Origin: a virus
Taxonomy: Duplodnaviria; Heunggongvirae; Uroviricota; Caudoviricetes
Virus record (IMG/VR): IMGVR_UViG_2534681912_000008
Length of the DNA stretch: 6,478 nt
Strand: one strand, 5' to 3'
Numbering within the stretch: the stretch's first letter is position 1; each line of letters opens with the position of its first letter. Positions 1 through 6,160 of this stretch are shown here, piece by piece. The notes beneath the pieces were generated by a model. That model searched no databases, had not been told where the DNA came from, and was given only the letters and a program-made list of their open reading frames with translations. The translations under genes were made by a program, and so were the position numbers.

Positions 1-258
1 CGGGCTGTGGCGCTTATTGTTCGCCAGCAGCGGCTGAAATTAAGCCTGTCCGGAAGGCTGGCGATAAAGGTGATTGCAGAGCCACCGGATAAGCGCCGCC
101 GCGATCTGGACAATATCCTGAAGGCACCACTGGATGCGCTGACGCATGCCGGACTACTTATAGACGACGAGCAGTTTGATGAAATCAATATTGTGCGCGG
201 TCAGCTCGTTCCTGGTGGGCGGCTGGGGATAAAAATCACAGAACTGGAGTGCGCATGA
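1..258 (+). CDS. rusA: Holliday junction resolvase RusA, C-terminal ~85 codons (5' end lies upstream of the window)
   Basis: Frame 1 is open from base 1 to the TGA at 256-258. The translation (...PDKRRRDLDNILKAPLDALTHAGLLIDDEQF...GGRLGIKITELE) aligns with the C-terminal half of E. coli RusA, including the RRRDLDN acidic catalytic motif. The Met at position 7 is internal, not the start. Confidence 0.85.
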   Translation, partial: RAVALIVRQQRLKLSLSGRLAIKVIAEPPDKRRRDLDNILKAPLDALTHAGLLIDDEQFDEINIVRGQLVPGGRLGIKITELECA

Positions 259-944
259 ATAACCAGTATTTACAGTTTGTGCGTGAGCAGCTCATTATCG
301 CCACCGCTGATTTGAGTGGGGCAACAAAAGGTCAGCTTGAAGCCTGGCAGGAGAATGCCATGTTCGATACAGGGCGTTACAGGCGTAAAAAAATCCGGTA
401 CCGCGATGAAGTGACCGGAAAAATGATAACGCGGGATAATCCACCAATCCCGGGAAAACAATCGCTGGCGAAGGGGACGTCAATTCCTCTGGTCAGTCAG
501 GTTGCTTTTTCTACATCATCATGGCGGCGGGCTGTTTTGTCTCTTGAAGAACATCATAAAGCCTGGTTGTTGTGGTGTTACAGCGGAAATACTTGCTGGG
601 AGTATCAGATCGCGATAACGCAGTGGGCATGGACAGAATTTAAGACTCACTCTGGTACCAGGAAAATTGCAGGGAAGACACAGGAACGCCTGAAAAAATT
701 AATCTGGCTGGCTGCACAGGATGTCAGGAGATGGGTTATAGGACATGATATCTACCAGCAACAGGAGCTTGCCCGTCTGTGTGGGATTAAGCCTGACAAC
801 TGGAGCCACAATTATGTGAGCTACTGGCGTGAAATACTCGACATTTTTATGAACCTCGATACCGAATCTCTGATTTGCACTGTGAAAAGGAGATCTCAAC
901 AAAAAGCGGCATTTTTGCAGCGAGATATTGCAAAAGTCAATTAG
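255..944 (+). CDS. Putative late-gene antitermination protein Q (assignment mainly positional)
   Basis: A ~230-codon ORF lies immediately after rusA, and its stop at 942-944 overlaps the -35 of a strong promoter followed by an intrinsic terminator, the canonical Q-PR'-tR' arrangement. Likely start is the ATG at 255 (GGAG at 246-249, ATGA overlap with the rusA stop); the ORF track begins at the GTG at 249. No Q family motif was recognised unambiguously. Confidence 0.5.
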   Translation: MNNQYLQFVREQLIIATADLSGATKGQLEAWQENAMFDTGRYRRKKIRYRDEVTGKMITRDNPPIPGKQSLAKGTSIPLVSQVAFSTSSWRRAVLSLEEHHKAWLLWCYSGNTCWEYQIAITQWAWTEFKTHSGTRKIAGKTQERLKKLIWLAAQDVRRWVIGHDIYQQQELARLCGIKPDNWSHNYVSYWREILDIFMNLDTESLICTVKRRSQQKAAFLQRDIAKVN

Positions 945-976
945 ATAGCATATATTTTATGTAAATGTGATATATT
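928..976 (+). promoter_or_regulatory. PR'-like sigma70 late promoter with a second -10-like element just downstream (putative promoter-proximal pause/qut region)
   Basis: -35 TTGCAA at 928-933, a 17-bp spacer, and -10 TATATT at 951-956. A second TGaTATATT (extended -10-like) at 968-976 falls just downstream of the predicted start site, as expected for a sigma-dependent pause element used for Q loading. Confidence 0.5.
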
Positions 977-993
977 GCTGTAAAGTGTATAAA

Positions 994-1017
994 CCCGCTC
1001 AAATGTGCGGGTTTTTT
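994..1017 (+). terminator. tR'-like rho-independent terminator
   Basis: CCCGC at 994-998 pairs with GCGGG at 1007-1011 around an 8-nt loop, followed by TTTTTT at 1012-1017. It lies about 50 nt downstream of the predicted PR' start. Confidence 0.7.
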
Positions 1018-1090: not shown

Positions 1091-1855
1091 ATGGAAGAAC
1101 AGCACGGTAATTACTTTATAAAACGAATTCAGTTGATTGGAAGAGGGGCATTTGGCTTTGTTGAACACGTTAAGGTTTACAACCTCAATAAAGGTGAATG
1201 CGGGGATTATGCTAGAAAGGTTTTAGCACCCGAAAAACCAGAGCTTTTGGCGCAAATAGAGCAGTTTAGAAGGCGTTTTAAAAGGGAGGTTGTGTATCAA
1301 TCACATTGCGTACATAGCAATATTGTTCCTATTTATTTGTGCGATTTGTTTGTTGAGAATCCATGGTTCATTATGGATAAAGCAGAATGTGATCTTGAGC
1401 ACGAAATAACGAACAACCTTCTTACAACAGATCAAAAAATTTCAATAGTGAAAATGGTATTAGATGGTGTAGCTTACATCCATGCCAAAGGCTATTTACA
1501 CAGAGATATAAAACCCTTTAATGTTTTGCGATTTAGCGACGGAACATACAAGGTGTCTGATTTTGGTCTGGTAAAAGATACGAATCCCGAAGGGGATACC
1601 ACTAAATTGACCGAGATCGGTACCCGTATGGGAAGTACAAGATATATGGCTCCCGAGATTTTATATAATGCAGAGTATTCAGTTAAGACTGATGTTTATG
1701 CTGTGGGACGGTTAATTGAAGACTTAAATTTAGATGATAAAAAAATAAAGCCTATCATAGCTAAGTGCACAAGGATGGATAAAGATGATAGATATCAGAC
1801 AATAGATGATGTGGCGTTTGATTTTGCGCATTCTTTTTTAAGGAGTGAGTCATGA
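1091..1855 (+). CDS. Hanks-type (eukaryotic-like) Ser/Thr protein kinase, catalytic domain only
   Basis: ATG at 1091 is preceded by GGTGAG at 1081-1086. The ~254-aa product carries the kinase subdomain motifs in order: Gly-rich loop IGRGAFGFV, the conserved Lys in YARKV, a Glu in FKREV, catalytic loop HRDIKPFN (Ser/Thr type), DFG in VSDFGL and APE in YMAPE. No transmembrane or sensor domain is evident. The TTG at 1016 used by the ORF track lies inside the terminator and is rejected as a start. Confidence 0.85.
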   Translation: MEEQHGNYFIKRIQLIGRGAFGFVEHVKVYNLNKGECGDYARKVLAPEKPELLAQIEQFRRRFKREVVYQSHCVHSNIVPIYLCDLFVENPWFIMDKAECDLEHEITNNLLTTDQKISIVKMVLDGVAYIHAKGYLHRDIKPFNVLRFSDGTYKVSDFGLVKDTNPEGDTTKLTEIGTRMGSTRYMAPEILYNAEYSVKTDVYAVGRLIEDLNLDDKKIKPIIAKCTRMDKDDRYQTIDDVAFDFAHSFLRSES

Positions 1856-2595
1856 TTCAGCTGATAGCGACTTCATCATTCTCGTATCCAAAAGAACCAG
1901 GTAGGGTCAACGAAGATTCATTGCTTCCTCCAAAAATTGTAGGAGACGGCATCTTATTTGCCGTAGCTGATGGTGTAGGTTCATACTCTGGTGCCAGTTA
2001 TGCTTCATCCATGGCAATCGCTGAACTTTCAGCATTGACAAGTTTATCTTTTGATGCAGTTCCGAATGTATTTGCTGAAGTTAAGCGAAAAGTTATGTCG
2101 TTAGCTGAAGTTAATGATGAGTTCGATAAAGCTGCTACTACACTTACCTTTTGTTATGTTTGTGATAGCGGAATTATTATTGGTCATATTGGTGATTGTC
2201 GCTTGTATTGCATTGGAGAAAAGAAAGCATATCAATTGACGAAGGACGATACCAGACATCAGATGTTAATTGATCAGAATATTTTTAAACCCAGAGATTT
2301 GAAGAATAAACCGGGAAAAAATATCTTAACGACTGCCATAGCCTCAAATGTTGATATGGAATACGACTGTGATTTTATCCCGTGGAAAGATTTGCCTGGT
2401 ATTAACGGGTTGTATCATCTGTGTATCATGTCTGATGGAGTTCATAACGTTTGGGAAAAACGCCCCAGATTTACATCAAATACTATGAGTAATAGTCAGA
2501 AGTTTTCTAATGGTATTTTGCGTCGTATAGAGAGAGCCGGACCTGATGATGACTTTTCTTTAGTAAGTATAATGGTGCGTGTGACGTCAGATTAG
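1852..2595 (+). CDS. PP2C (PPM-family) Ser/Thr protein phosphatase
   Basis: The start ATG overlaps the kinase stop (ATGA at 1852-1855), with AGGAG at 1838-1842. Metal-binding PPM motifs are present: FAVADGVGS, HIGDCRLY, MSDGV and C-terminal DDDFSLV. Confidence 0.8.
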   Translation: MIQLIATSSFSYPKEPGRVNEDSLLPPKIVGDGILFAVADGVGSYSGASYASSMAIAELSALTSLSFDAVPNVFAEVKRKVMSLAEVNDEFDKAATTLTFCYVCDSGIIIGHIGDCRLYCIGEKKAYQLTKDDTRHQMLIDQNIFKPRDLKNKPGKNILTTAIASNVDMEYDCDFIPWKDLPGINGLYHLCIMSDGVHNVWEKRPRFTSNTMSNSQKFSNGILRRIERAGPDDDFSLVSIMVRVTSD

Positions 2596-2666
2596 TTGTA
2601 TAAACCCAGTAGGGAATGCTAATTTCCCATACTACAGAGTAAAGAAAAACTTAATTTTAATGTGAA

Positions 2667-2692
2667 AAGGCTGCTATCAGGCGGCCTTTTTA
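2667..2692 (+). terminator. Rho-independent terminator closing the kinase-phosphatase cassette
   Basis: GGCTGC at 2669-2674 pairs with GCGGCC at 2681-2686 (one G-U pair) around a 6-nt loop, followed by TTTTT at 2687-2691. Confidence 0.6.
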
Positions 2693-2705
2693 TGTCTGAA
2701 AAGCT

Positions 2706-3032
2706 GTGCAGTACGTTAAACACGCTTGTGGTTGTGAATGCCGACTGCGGCGGTATTTTGGCGTGACAGCGCAGGTGCCGTATACCGATGTCTGGACGCA
2801 TAAACCGGTGCAGTTCTATCCCGGGAAACATCCGTGCGAAAAACCGGCAGAAATGCTGCAGCAGATAATCAGCGCAAGCAGTCGTCCGGGAGACCTGGTT
2901 GCAGATTTTTTTATGGGCTCAGGTTCAACGGTAAAAGCGGCACTGGCGCTCGGGCGTCGTGCGATTGGCGTTGAACTGGAGACCGGACGTTTTGAGCAGA
3001 CAGTCAGGGAAGTTCAGGATTTAATCGTTTGA
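2706..3032 (+). pseudogene. 5'-truncated DNA methyltransferase remnant (N6-adenine/N4-cytosine MTase family, C-terminal AdoMet-binding part only)
   Basis: The translation HPCEKPAEMLQQIISASSRPGDLVADFFMGSGSTVKAALALGRRAIGVE matches the C-terminal HP..KP and D.F.GSG.T motif region of beta-class DNA MTases. Only ~44 codons lie upstream of it, with no DPPY-type catalytic motif. The ORF starts at a GTG directly after an in-frame stop, so the N-terminal domain is missing. Confidence 0.6.
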
Positions 3033-3043
3033 AACGGATGAGA

Positions 3044-3072
3044 TTGCAGAATTAATTACGCACCATTATTAT
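3044..3072 (+). promoter_or_regulatory. Candidate sigma70 promoter for the tRNA cluster
   Basis: -35 TTGCAG at 3044-3049, a 17-bp spacer, and -10 TATTAT at 3067-3072, about 10 nt upstream of the first tRNA 5' end. Confidence 0.4.
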
Positions 3073-3081
3073 TCTGCTTCC

Positions 3082-3157
3082 GGCCCTTTAGCTCAGTGGT
3101 GAGAGCGAGCGACTCATAATCGCCAGGTCGCTGGTTCAAATCCAGCAAGGGCCACCA
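3082..3157 (+). tRNA. ileZ: tRNA with CAT anticodon, most likely tRNA-Ile2 (lysidine type) rather than tRNA-Met
   Basis: Manual cloverleaf: acceptor GGCCCTT pairs with AAGGGCC; D arm GCTC/GAGC; anticodon loop CTCATAA with CAT at 3115-3117; T loop TTCAAAT; encoded CCA at 3155-3157. It is closely similar to E. coli ileX. The symbol is assigned by synteny with the Stx-phage ileZ-argN-argO cluster. Confidence 0.85.
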
Positions 3158-3164
3158 TCACATA

Positions 3165-3241
3165 CCGCCATTAGCTCATCAGGAAAGAGCGCCAGCCTTC
3201 GAAGCTGGTTGCGCGGAGTTCGGGTCCCCGAAGGCGGTCCA
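3165..3241 (+). tRNA. argN: tRNA-Arg (anticodon TCG), somewhat degenerate
   Basis: Perfect anticodon arm CCAGC-CTTCGAA-GCTGG with TCG at 3199-3201, D arm GCTC/GAGC and an encoded CCA at 3239-3241. The acceptor stem has an A-A mismatch, the T stem an A-C mismatch, and the T loop TTCGGGT has G where the invariant A58 is expected. Confidence 0.6.
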
Positions 3242-3254
3242 TTATCTGTATCCT

Positions 3255-3331
3255 GCGTTGTTAGCTCAGCCGGACAGAGCAATTGCCTTCTAAGCAATCG
3301 GTCACTGGTTCGAATCCAGTACAACGCGCCA
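3255..3331 (+). tRNA. argO: tRNA-Arg (anticodon TCT, decodes AGA/AGG)
   Basis: Canonical cloverleaf: acceptor GCGTTGT pairs with ACAACGC; anticodon arm ATTGC-CTTCTAA-GCAAT; T arm ACTGG-TTCGAAT-CCAGT; discriminator G and encoded CCA at 3329-3331. Confidence 0.9.
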
Positions 3332-3346
3332 CACTTATTTTCCCTG

Positions 3347-3370
3347 GCTCGCTTTTGCGGGCTTTTTTTT
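3347..3370 (+). terminator. Rho-independent terminator after the tRNA cluster
   Basis: GCTCGC at 3347-3352 pairs with GCGGGC at 3357-3362 (one G-U pair) around a TTTT loop, followed by T8 at 3363-3370. Confidence 0.6.
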
Positions 3371-3590
3371 AAATGTCTCACAATTCAGGCGGTTGACTGT
3401 TGTCTGGTTTGCGGGGAGTTTGTTAAAAGAAACTGGCATGGTGAATCCCCCTGTGCGGAGGGGCAATCAGCGAGTAGGTATATGGGATAATCGCGGATTC
3501 AGGTGCTGGTACTGAATTCACCGGGAGGCACCCGGCACCATGCAATGGCACATAGCGCCACTCTCCAGCCCCTCTCCGGAGGGGCTTTTC
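3371..3590 (+). repeat. Direct-repeat unit A (diverged paralogue of unit B), non-coding, ends in an intrinsic terminator
   Basis: Shares collinear blocks with 3832-4078: CTCACAATTCAG, GTTGAC, TTTGTTAAAA, GCATGGTGAATCCCCCTG.GCGGAGGGGC, TCACCGGGAGGCACCCGGCACCATG and AGCCCCTCTCCGGAGGGGCTTT. The segments between the blocks are divergent or differ by indels. Confidence 0.7.
3568..3590 (+). terminator. Rho-independent terminator at the end of repeat unit A
   Basis: GCCCCTC at 3568-3574 pairs perfectly with GAGGGGC at 3579-3585 around a TCCG loop, followed by TTTT. Confidence 0.65.
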
Positions 3591-3779
3591 TGTGCCGGAT
3601 ACATCACAGTTTCTGGAACCTTAGGTACTACAGTATCAGTCAGGGTGCTATATTTTCAGATGTGATGAAAGCCTGTCAGCAGGCAGGGCGTATCGGAAAT
3701 GACCCAGTAGAGAAAACGTTGACTCAGATACCGGTGCTGAGTTACCGGGAAACCGGCATCACATGACCGCTATCCTTCC

Positions 3780-3808
3780 AGGCCCATCCGCTCCGGTGGG
3801 CCTTTTTA
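3780..3808 (+). terminator. Strong rho-independent terminator in the unique segment between the repeat units
   Basis: AGGCCCA at 3780-3786 pairs with TGGGCCT at 3797-3803, with further inner CCG/CGG pairing, followed by TTTTT. Confidence 0.65.
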
Positions 3809-3831
3809 CTGCAGAAAACAGGTTCCCCGTT

Positions 3832-4078
3832 AAATGCTATGTTGCTCACAATTCAGTAAGTTGACAGTTGCCTGTCAGACTGGGCATTTGTTAAAAAAAT
3901 TTCGCATGGTGAATCCCCCTGAGCGGAGGGGCGACTGGTGACGGTATAATCTCTGATTATCAAAACGAGAATGACGCGGGTTTAGTGGCACCGGGCTGAA
4001 CTCACCGGGAGGCACCCGGCACCATGTGCATGATGATACAGATACGCGGCTTTAGCCCCTCTCCGGAGGGGCTTTCTT
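3832..4078 (+). repeat. Direct-repeat unit B (diverged paralogue of unit A), non-coding, ends in an intrinsic terminator
   Basis: Same ordered conserved blocks as unit A, with a perfect TTGACA at 3860-3865 and a perfect TATAAT at 3945-3950. It carries about 25 extra nt in the central divergent segment. Confidence 0.7.
4055..4078 (+). terminator. Rho-independent terminator at the end of repeat unit B
   Basis: GCCCCTC at 4055-4061 pairs with GAGGGGC at 4066-4072 around a TCCG loop, followed by a T-rich run (TTTCTTAT). Confidence 0.6.
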
Positions 4079-4084
4079 ATGGAC

Positions 4085-4306: not shown

Positions 4307-6160
4307 ATGGCATTTAAACACTATGACGTGGTCAGGGCGGCATCGCCGTCAGACCTTGCGAAACGACTGACACAAAAACTGAAGGAGGGCTGGCAGCCGT
4401 TTGGTAGTCCGGTGGCCATAACCCCTTATACCCTGATGCAGGCGATTGCAGCAGAAGGTGATGTGGTCGTCAGTGGTGCAACTGAGCCGGAGTGGTACTA
4501 CGTCATCGTACTGGCCGGGCAATCCAATGCCATGGCTTACGGTGAAGGGCTTCCGCTTCCGGATTCATACGATGCGCCCCATCCGCGCATTAAGCAACTG
4601 GCCCGTCGTAACACAGTGACTCCCGGTGGTGAAGTATGCGTATTTAACGACATCATTCCTGCTGACCATTGTCTGCATGATGTTCAGGATATGAGTACGA
4701 TTAACCATCCCCGGGCTGACCTGAGCAAAGGGCAGTACGGCTGTGTCGGACAGGGCTTACATATTGCCAAAAAACTGCTTCCGTATATCCCTAATAATGC
4801 GGGGATCCTGCTGGTACCATGCTGTCGTGGTGGTTCGGCATTCACCCAGGGCACGGAGGGGACATTCAGCGAGTCCACGGGAGCCAGTCAGGATTCGGCT
4901 CGCTGGGGAGTGGGTAAGCCGTTATATCAGGATCTGCTTTTCCGCACGAAGGCAGCATTGCAGAAAAACCCGAAAAACGTTTTGCTGGCGATATGCTGGA
5001 TGCAGGGGGAATTCGATATGACGAATGCCAGTTACGCCCAGCAGCCAGCAGCATTTCTTGCAATGGTACAGCAGTTCCGTGCTGACCTTGCCGGGCTGGC
5101 AGCGCAGTGTCACGGTGGAAGTCCGGCATCAGTCCCCTGGATTTGTGGCGACACGACATACGCGTGGAAACAAGAACACGGTACGCAATATGAAGTGGTA
5201 TATGGTGCATATAAAGGTAAAGAATCCCAGCAGATTTATTTTGTTCCCTTTATGACCGATGGTAGCGGAGTTAATACACCGACAAACAACCCGTCAGAAG
5301 ATCCTGATATTGTCGGGTCTGGTTATTACGGTTCGGCATCCCGAACGAACAAAAACTGGGTATCATCAAATCGCCCGACGCATTTCAGCTCATGGGCGCG
5401 TCGTGGCATTATTCCCGATCGTATGGCAACTGCTATTCTGAACGTAGCCGGTCGCACCTTAGCCTTCATTAGTGGTAAGGCACCGGAAATCAAACTCTCG
5501 CCCGGCGGCGACACGCCATCGGGGCCGTCTGAAGATGCATCCATACGCACAATCTCCCTGTTGCCGACAGCCGGAGACGCTGCTGCGCAGGGCTGGAGCA
5601 TTAAGAATGGCGGAATTCAGTTGTCAGATGGTGTATTTAAGATCACCAAGCAGAGCAATAAAGCCTGGTCCCTGACGCGCCCGGTGGATGACGCAGTCTC
5701 CCTGCTGACACGGGGTGGCAGACTGAGCTGTAAGTTTCGACTGTCAGGCGCACTGACCAACAATCAGTTCGGTCTGGGAATTTATCTGTATACCGATGTA
5801 GCGTTACCTGACGTCGTGGCGATGACCGGGACTGGTAACCCGTTCCTGATGTCGTTCTTCACCCAGACCACAGACGGCAAACTGAATCTGATGCATCACA
5901 AGAAAGCAGGAAACACAAAGTTGGGCGAGTTCGGGAATTACAGTAACGACTGGCAGACGCTGGAGCTGGTGTTCACCGCCGGCAGTGCCACGGTTACTCC
6001 GAAACTGAATGGAGTGGCTGGCCCGGCATTCCAGGTCATAAAAGACAGTCTGACACTGGGGCTGAATGCGCTGACGCTGACGGATATTACCAAAAATGCA
6101 GCGTATGGCGTTGAGATAGAAAGTCTGGTGCTGGAGATAAATGCACCGGCATCATCATAA
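4307..6160 (+). CDS. nanS: Prophage-type sialate O-acetylesterase (NanS-p-like): N-terminal DUF1737-like region, SGNH/SASA esterase domain, C-terminal beta-rich domain
   Basis: A 617-codon ORF with GGAGG at 4298-4302 before the ATG. The N-terminus MAFKHYDVV... and the GQSN catalytic-serine motif in VLAGQSNAMAYGEG match the NanS-p esterases encoded downstream of stx in Stx phages, recalled from memory. It is the dominant long ORF; all overlapping ORFs are rejected. Confidence 0.85.
   Translation: MAFKHYDVVRAASPSDLAKRLTQKLKEGWQPFGSPVAITPYTLMQAIAAEGDVVVSGATEPEWYYVIVLAGQSNAMAYGEGLPLPDSYDAPHPRIKQLARRNTVTPGGEVCVFNDIIPADHCLHDVQDMSTINHPRADLSKGQYGCVGQGLHIAKKLLPYIPNNAGILLVPCCRGGSAFTQGTEGTFSESTGASQDSARWGVGKPLYQDLLFRTKAALQKNPKNVLLAICWMQGEFDMTNASYAQQPAAFLAMVQQFRADLAGLAAQCHGGSPASVPWICGDTTYAWKQEHGTQYEVVYGAYKGKESQQIYFVPFMTDGSGVNTPTNNPSEDPDIVGSGYYGSASRTNKNWVSSNRPTHFSSWARRGIIPDRMATAILNVAGRTLAFISGKAPEIKLSPGGDTPSGPSEDASIRTISLLPTAGDAAAQGWSIKNGGIQLSDGVFKITKQSNKAWSLTRPVDDAVSLLTRGGRLSCKFRLSGALTNNQFGLGIYLYTDVALPDVVAMTGTGNPFLMSFFTQTTDGKLNLMHHKKAGNTKLGEFGNYSNDWQTLELVFTAGSATVTPKLNGVAGPAFQVIKDSLTLGLNALTLTDITKNAAYGVEIESLVLEINAPASS

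Follow-up and report, generated by a model that had tools for sequence, protein, structure and literature searches.

The DNA stretch described here (6,478 nucleotides (nt); IMG/VR record IMGVR_UViG_2534681912_000008; hereafter the window) matches, at 100% identity, a section of a lambdoid prophage present in Escherichia coli ML35 and several other strains. It carries a two-gene cassette encoding a Ser/Thr protein kinase and a PP2C-family phosphatase and, downstream of it, three tandem tRNA genes. A preliminary description of the window took the cassette to be the cargo that needs these tRNAs. We found that cassette and tRNA trio assort independently, and that the codon bias of the cassette is a general AT shift, the automatic outcome of low GC (guanine plus cytosine) content on coding sequence. 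The cassette is very probably an AT-rich moron standing beside a generic phage tRNA module, the match between its codons and the tRNAs being the default expectation rather than a sign of co-evolution. The direct observations behind this reading are the codon counts, a composition null model, the separate occurrence of cassette and tRNA module across genomes, and relatives of the cassette that show an equal bias without having the tRNAs. A co-adapted pair of tRNAs and cargo, if true, would have meant a phage supplying translation machinery for a specific accessory function, and would have offered a control handle. It is textbook knowledge that AT-rich foreign genes in E. coli invariably abound in AGA, AGG and ATA codons, and that lambdoid phages commonly carry the matching tRNAs; since both tendencies are general, a match is expected by default and implies no functional link.

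The genes in question are the following:

1091..1855, plus strand: Ser/Thr protein kinase, 254 amino acids (aa), GC 37%, GC at third codon positions (GC3) 33% (Pkinase, E=1.5e-33; PGAP start identical)
1852..2595, plus strand: PP2C-family Ser/Thr phosphatase, 247 aa, GC 38% (PP2C_2, E=3.9e-14; 4-nt overlap with the kinase stop)
3082..3157, plus strand: tRNA, anticodon CAU, putative ileZ-type tRNA-Ile2, which would read ATA after lysidine modification (ARAGORN; Rfam 72.5 bits; PGAP tRNA-Ile)
3165..3241, plus strand: tRNA-Arg, anticodon UCG, argN-type, reads CGA/CGG (ARAGORN; Rfam 43.4 bits; PGAP tRNA-Arg)
3255..3331, plus strand: tRNA-Arg, anticodon UCU, argO-type, reads AGA/AGG (ARAGORN; Rfam 70.1 bits; PGAP tRNA-Arg)

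The three tandem tRNAs, with anticodons CAU, UCG and UCU in that order by ARAGORN and Rfam, were correctly placed at 3082-3331 by the preliminary description and named there as readers of these codons, which are rare in E. coli. ARAGORN labels the CAU gene as Met, from the anticodon alone, and PGAP annotates it as tRNA-Ile in every locus examined. Records of Shiga toxin (Stx) phages name the trio ileZ, argN and argO; it is the known ileZ-argN-argO module of Stx and other lambdoid phages, an equivalence that had also been recognised before. A full-text literature search on ileZ, argN and argO returned no relevant paper.

Codon usage was compared with a host reference of 39 ML35 chromosomal coding sequences (CDS; 13,826 codons) and with 27 other CDS of the same prophage, of which 25.7 kb was examined. 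AGA and AGG are counted together as AGR. The kinase open reading frame (ORF; 1091-1855, 254 codons) has the Arg codons AGA 6, AGG 4, CGA 2, CGG 1, CGT 2 and CGC 0, and the Ile codons ATA 8, ATT 8 and ATC 3, so that AGR makes up 10/15 and ATA 8/19; this formal count is identical to the hand count given earlier (10 of 15 AGA/AGG, 2 CGA, 8 of 19 ATA). A tandem AGA-AGG-CGT lies at 1268-1276. The phosphatase (1852-2595) has AGR 5/11, one CGA, and ATA 4/20. The shares compare as follows:

39 ML35 chromosomal CDS: AGR/Arg 5.7%, CGA/Arg 5.8%, ATA/Ile 6.5%
27 other prophage CDS: AGR/Arg 20%, CGA/Arg 11%, ATA/Ile 15.5%
Kinase: AGR/Arg 67%, CGA/Arg 13%, ATA/Ile 42%
Phosphatase: AGR/Arg 45%, CGA/Arg 9%, ATA/Ile 20%

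The kinase thus lies above the host (AGR p=2e-9, ATA p=2e-5) and above the flanking and other genes of the prophage (AGR p=2e-4, ATA p=0.007), so that for this gene the codon count did not give the outcome that the preliminary description had named as refuting it. The preliminary description held that the bias of the kinase matches the three tRNAs exactly, and this is true of AGA, AGG and ATA but not of CGA, which is not enriched against either the host (p=0.22) or the prophage (p=0.68). It also credited the phosphatase with many ATA and AGA/AGG codons; the ATA share of that gene is no higher than in other prophage genes (p=0.53), and its AGR share is borderline (p=0.055). The 27 other CDS themselves over-use the cognate codons 2-3.5 fold relative to the host, and hold 182 of them against 30 in the cassette. 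A second AT-rich gene of the ML35 prophage (locus L001:8123-9226) lies ~3 kb upstream of the window. Its product has a helix-turn-helix domain, its GC content is 42%, and it has AGR 15/28 and ATA 7/27; the kinase is therefore not the sole heavy user of these codons in the prophage.

The bias follows base composition. GC content is 0.35-0.41 across 900-2700 and 0.45-0.57 elsewhere in the window, and the cassette has 37-38% GC (GC3 0.31-0.33) against ~52% in the flanking ORFs. From the base frequencies of the cassette, 49-53% AGR, 15% CGA and 35-41% ATA are expected, against 58%, 12% and 31% observed, and no excess of cognate codons beyond composition was found for AGR, CGA or ATA (all p>0.25). 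Relative to the host, codons ending in A or T are shifted by a mean of +0.69 log2 and those ending in G or C by -0.80, a global AT shift in which TTG, GGA, TCA, GCT, TTA, ACA and GTT are raised as well. In 5000 recodings of both cassette proteins from base composition alone, the three codons most enriched over E. coli were AGA, AGG and ATA in 83% of cases; the same top three came out in 64% with a generic symmetric composition of 37% GC, and in 41% with uniform base frequencies. These codons head the enrichment list because they are the rarest in E. coli, so that their ratio to the host is the largest.

A GC-matched control gave the same picture. It was drawn from the ORFs of the fetched E. 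coli loci, with the ML35 serC-rlmL core region as extra ORF sequence. From ORFs above 50% GC down to those below 40%, the AGR share rises through 7%, 16%, 32% and 47%, and the ATA share through 8-10%, 13%, 20% and 46%. Only four non-cassette ORFs fall below 40% GC, among them chromosomal yibG and the DUF5677 gene of a tRNA-less prophage; against this small control the cassette showed no difference (AGR p=0.45, ATA p=0.12).

Relatives of the cassette point the same way. The kinase family is widespread in Gammaproteobacteria, and homologues of the kinase-PP2C pair occur in prophages of Raoultella (74% aa identity), Yersinia (63%), Hafnia (57%) and Providencia (53%). ARAGORN found no phage-borne tRNA within 8 kb on either side of the cassettes in these four genera; the only tRNA near any of them is a tRNA-Gly(CCC) ~7 kb upstream in locus L015, beyond the prophage repressor gene. 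The homologous cassettes have 33-40% GC and pooled shares of 47/90 (52%) AGR and 54/169 (32%) ATA, with no difference from the E. coli cassette (AGR p=0.66, ATA p=1.0). Many AGR positions are common to the E. coli cassette and its homologues, e.g. those at 1214, 1268, 1271, 1502, 1790, 2467 and 2533. The bias thus belongs to the cassette family as an inherited trait of its composition, and is not an adjustment to the tRNAs of the E. coli phage. In Escherichia phage Flotzy, a kinase with 45% identity precedes a gene the size of a PP2C gene, and both are placed after the lysis genes instead.

The distribution of the two modules separates them further. The cassette is present in 50 of 5426 complete E. 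coli genomes, and the tRNA cluster in 3061 of the same 5426, in up to 13 places per genome; the tRNA module is thus ~60 times more widespread. Among 50,697 phage records, no nucleotide match to the cassette was found, even at distant-blastn sensitivity. The tRNA cluster occurs in 289 phage records, mostly of Stx2 phages; 279 records cover at least 80% of the tRNA-cluster query, most of them at 90-95% identity, and 249 records lie at 90-95%. In E. coli 042 the methylase-tRNA-esterase backbone recurs at 98.7% identity, but its Q gene differs and the cassette is missing. Conversely, a constant cassette is accompanied by different tRNA sets from one E. coli locus to another. About 25 loci have the Ile-Arg-Arg set, and ~14 have Ile(CAU)-Lys(UUU)-Thr(UGU)-Gly(UCC) and no Arg tRNA (E24377A-type 10, GTEN_24-type 4; one locus of each type was read and the rest are assigned by their coverage pattern). 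One locus has only Ile and Arg(UCU). The E24377A kinase, at 99% protein identity, still has AGR 10/15. In several of the genomes whose cassette locus has no Arg tRNA, no second place matched any part of the query, tRNA cluster included. As the tRNA module is ~60 times commoner and the cassette persists with other tRNA sets or none, the view of the cassette as the cargo needing the tRNAs is contradicted. Composition suffices to explain the match.

Within the cluster itself, four loci were compared, and their tRNA-Ile(CAU) genes do not differ (100% identity). In E24377A-type loci (L003:7054-7380 versus window 3075-3345), the tRNAs at the argN and argO positions are positional homologues with other anticodons, UCG being replaced by UUU (Lys) and UCU by UGU (Thr), followed by an extra Gly(UCC) gene. 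To judge from this alignment, it looks like anticodon remoulding within a phage tRNA cluster. The Lys(UUU) gene is not annotated by PGAP, and the argN position is degenerate in EPSSH018.

Several observations weigh against independence of cassette and tRNAs. The three codons most enriched in the cassette relative to the host are AGA, AGG and ATA, precisely cognate ones. Cognate codons make up 6.0% of the cassette, about twice the 3.1% in the rest of the prophage and well above the 1.05% of the host. A tandem AGA-AGG stands within the kinase at 1268-1273, and such a tandem is the type of site most sensitive to the supply of tRNA-Arg(UCU). Given this density and the tandem, a translational benefit is plausible. 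A tRNA-Ile(CAU) gene lies downstream in all six of the E. coli cassette loci with tRNAs that were read (the window and L002-L006), and cassette and tRNAs share the same Q-dependent late region. Finally, none of the 39 Leu codons of the cassette is CTA, which is rare in E. coli and read by no phage tRNA; ~15% would be expected by composition (p=0.003), 14% from GC-matched ORFs (p=0.01) and 15% from the homologues (26/176; p=0.006).

One explanation of these points is co-adaptation, in which the tRNAs were kept for the kinase/PP2C cargo, or the codons of the cassette were shaped to the phage tRNA supply. We consider this very unlikely. The enrichment of the top three codons is reproduced by composition alone, and CGA is not enriched. 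The tRNA module stands on the same backbone without the cassette, a 99%-identical kinase adjoins an Ile-Lys-Thr-Gly set without Arg tRNA, and the AGR and ATA shares are no different in homologous cassettes that lack tRNAs; by these distribution data co-adaptation is largely refuted. The CTA deficit is lost after correction for 59 codons. CCC is just as rare and likewise lacks a phage tRNA, yet its share in the E. coli cassette exceeds that in the homologues (p=0.011), GGA is not depleted, and TTG and CCC are correspondingly higher where CTA is missing. Selective amelioration, in which unserved rare codons are purged and served ones kept, was considered and is unproven, as CTA fails the multiple-test correction and CCC goes the opposite way. 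The absence of CTA is not counted as support for co-adaptation. In a weaker form of the idea, tRNA-bearing backbones may relax selection on AGR and ATA and so tolerate AT-rich cargo that has not been ameliorated.

A second explanation is that the resident tRNAs measurably raise translation of the AGR- and ATA-rich cassette, above all at the tandem AGA-AGG, as a by-product of a role for the whole phage, the backbone being a permissive landing site for AT-rich cargo. The 6% of cognate codons and the tandem at 1268-1273 agree with it. Against it, prophages without tRNAs have AT-rich cargo in this slot too (the DUF5677 gene of L020 and the cassettes in four genera), and rare codons seldom limit yield at natural, low expression. 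A consensus scan gave no clear sigma-70 promoter for the tRNAs, so that they may not be supplied in the lysogen; a match seen by eye at ~3046-3074 (TTGCAG-17-TATTAT) agrees at only 8/12 positions, was not reported by the scan and is not claimed as a tRNA promoter. That phage tRNAs make up for differences in codon usage is an established general idea (Bailly-Bechet 2007, as cited in PMC7946995), and the 2-3.5 fold enrichment across the whole prophage fits it. On the other side, lambdoid phages with and without these three tRNAs do not differ in codon adaptation (P=0.93; PMC4631060). Such an incidental benefit is plausible, though we rate it as less likely than not.

Our preferred reading remains that of an AT-rich moron beside a generic tRNA module. 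The kinase/PP2C pair would have been inserted into a pre-existing Q-methylase-tRNA backbone, of which the tRNA trio would be an older, independently assorting module fitting the codon usage of the whole prophage and not specifically that of the cassette. Low GC makes the cassette rich in AGA, AGG and ATA, the A-rich synonymous codons for Arg and Ile happening to be the rarest in E. coli; lambdoid phages carry tRNAs for exactly such codons for the same reason. Any help of the tRNAs in translating the cassette would be incidental. In similar scans, codon/tRNA matches should be checked against a composition null and against the co-occurrence of the modules.

The more interesting by-product of the analysis is the placement of the kinase/PP2C pair in the slot between Q and lysis genes, which is conserved across genera. 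The cassette directly follows Q in every E. coli locus, and in five genera (Raoultella, Yersinia, Hafnia, Providencia and E. coli prophages) the pair sits immediately after the late antiterminator and before the lysis genes (L009-L018, gene at 8001 in each; L019:3998-5502). The antiterminators that precede it belong to three unrelated families (PF06323, PF06530 and PF03589). We take the pair to be an AT-rich moron, gained horizontally, in a cargo slot downstream of Q. Homology of the Q region to related cassette-less loci stops at about window position 978. In STN0717-20 a different gene comes after Q, which is 89% identical, and one relative of the same Q allele has a DUF5677 gene in the slot, with holins directly after it; this gene (L020, a tRNA-less prophage) has 37% GC, AGR 9/16 and ATA 9/20. 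As other cargo occurs there, the position downstream of Q is a general cargo slot.

The surroundings of the cassette are given by the remaining features of the window:

7-258: RusA
249..944, plus strand: late antiterminator Q (Phage_antiter_Q, PF06323; Pfam E=5.6e-84; PGAP)
928..956, plus strand: promoter-like site at the position of late promoter pR' (TTGCAA-17-TATATT), overlapping the end of Q (consensus scan 9/12; a pattern match only)
991..1014, plus strand: intrinsic terminator hairpin and T-run at the position of late terminator tR' (terminator scan; fold -14.7 kcal/mol, z=-4.5)
2660..2695, plus strand: strong terminator hairpin flanked by an A-run and a U-run (fold of 2650-2700: -20.4 kcal/mol, z=-4.9; 0/200 shuffles as stable)
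2745..3032, plus strand: C-terminal remnant of an N6/N4 DNA methyltransferase (Pfam N6_N4_Mtase, profile positions 134-219 of 221 only; PGAP pseudogene 'missing N-terminus')
3346..3363, plus strand: terminator-like hairpin and T-run 3' of the tRNA cluster (scan; fold -11.4 kcal/mol, z=-3.4)
4307-6160: nanS-p-like SASA esterase

The gene order is thus RusA, Q, the kinase/PP2C cassette, the methylase remnant, the ileZ-argN-argO tRNAs, two STnc100 small RNAs (sRNAs) and the nanS-p-like esterase. This is the layout of Stx-converting phages minus the stx genes, and what the window covers is the region of late regulation in an stx-less lambdoid prophage resembling Stx phages. The hairpin at 991..1014 forms the left edge of the AT-rich cassette and that at 2660..2695 the right edge, where GC climbs from 0.37 to 0.55. 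An intact methylase gene of 1050 nt, preceded by a 198-nt ORF, is found in E24377A, Cn5 and 042; in E24377A, Cn5 and E275a the intact methylase and the 198-nt ORF lie between cassette and tRNAs. The arrangement in the window therefore arose by deletion, of ~1.2 kb between the cassette terminator and the methylase C-terminus, with loss of the methylase N-terminus.

For a promoter of the cassette, the consensus scan gave no site in 1015-1090, and promoter-like matches in the region were as numerous as in shuffled sequence. Alternatively, Q-modified polymerase starting at the late promoter pR' may transcribe both genes. Shortly before the kinase start, an inverted repeat TTGTAA...TTACAA (1049-1076) surrounds the extended -10-like TGTTACAAT, possibly an operator or a weak promoter; the repeat was spotted by eye only and is absent from the promoter-scan output.

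The two full copies of the STnc100 sRNA (Rfam RF02076), at 3407-3597 (136 bits) and 3875-4084 (165 bits), occupy the gap between tRNAs and esterase, where Stx phages have stxAB. A weak third match at 3636-3809 (30 bits) is under the gathering score. An 88-nt direct repeat (3377-3464 / 3845-3932, 80% identical) covers the upstream region and the 5' end of each copy. A small minus-strand pseudo-CDS annotated by PGAP in this region is probably spurious.

The function of the pair we infer from its domains and from comparison with known systems. The kinase translation has the catalytic motifs of its family (VAIK-type Lys, HRDIKPFN, DFG and APE), and the phosphatase the Asp-Gly metal motifs of PP2C. 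The kinase domain matches the PADLOC models PD-T4-6, mad6 and Stk2 (E=1e-28 to 6e-40), and these matches cover the catalytic-domain part only, e.g. positions 11-201 of 327 or 51-243 of 659; the PP2C has no convincing PADLOC match (E=0.0035). Membership in PD-T4-6 was considered and is not claimed, the match being limited to the kinase domain, and PD-T4-6, Stk2 and mad6 have no PP2C partner gene, unlike the cassette. Among characterised systems the closest is KKP (kinase-kinase-phosphatase), a module known from Pf and other prophages that works through phosphorylation as a toxin/antitoxin and governs lysogeny and defence (PMC11341870). Both are prophage-borne pairings of Pkinase and PP2C_2, but the cassette has a single bare kinase of 254 aa, with a Pkinase domain only, followed by the phosphatase, and this architecture is not that of KKP. 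Tentatively, the bare kinase and PP2C could form a distinct, uncharacterised two-gene module tied to lambdoid late transcription, perhaps a toxin/antitoxin-like switch, working by phosphorylation, for superinfection defence or for the timing of lysis and lysogeny.

A moron is an extra transcription unit inserted between conserved lambdoid genes, a concept attributed to Juhala and Hendrix. The cassette shares with phage morons a composition unlike that of its neighbours (37% versus 52% GC), terminator hairpins on both sides, presence or absence among otherwise related prophages, and a slot that takes other cargo, such as the DUF5677 gene; in Stx phages the slot holds stx. It differs in that a dedicated promoter was not convincingly found. 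The tRNAs share with the cluster of Stx phages (933W, Min27, Sakai and others) the same three anticodons in the same order, and a place preceded by Q and a DNA methylase and followed by a nanS-p-type esterase; the window differs in lacking stx, with two STnc100 copies in the place of stxAB, and in its truncated upstream methylase. In common with the codon-compensation model, the codons read by the tRNAs are 2-3.5 times more frequent in the prophage than in the host; the effect extends across the whole prophage and is not confined to one cargo.

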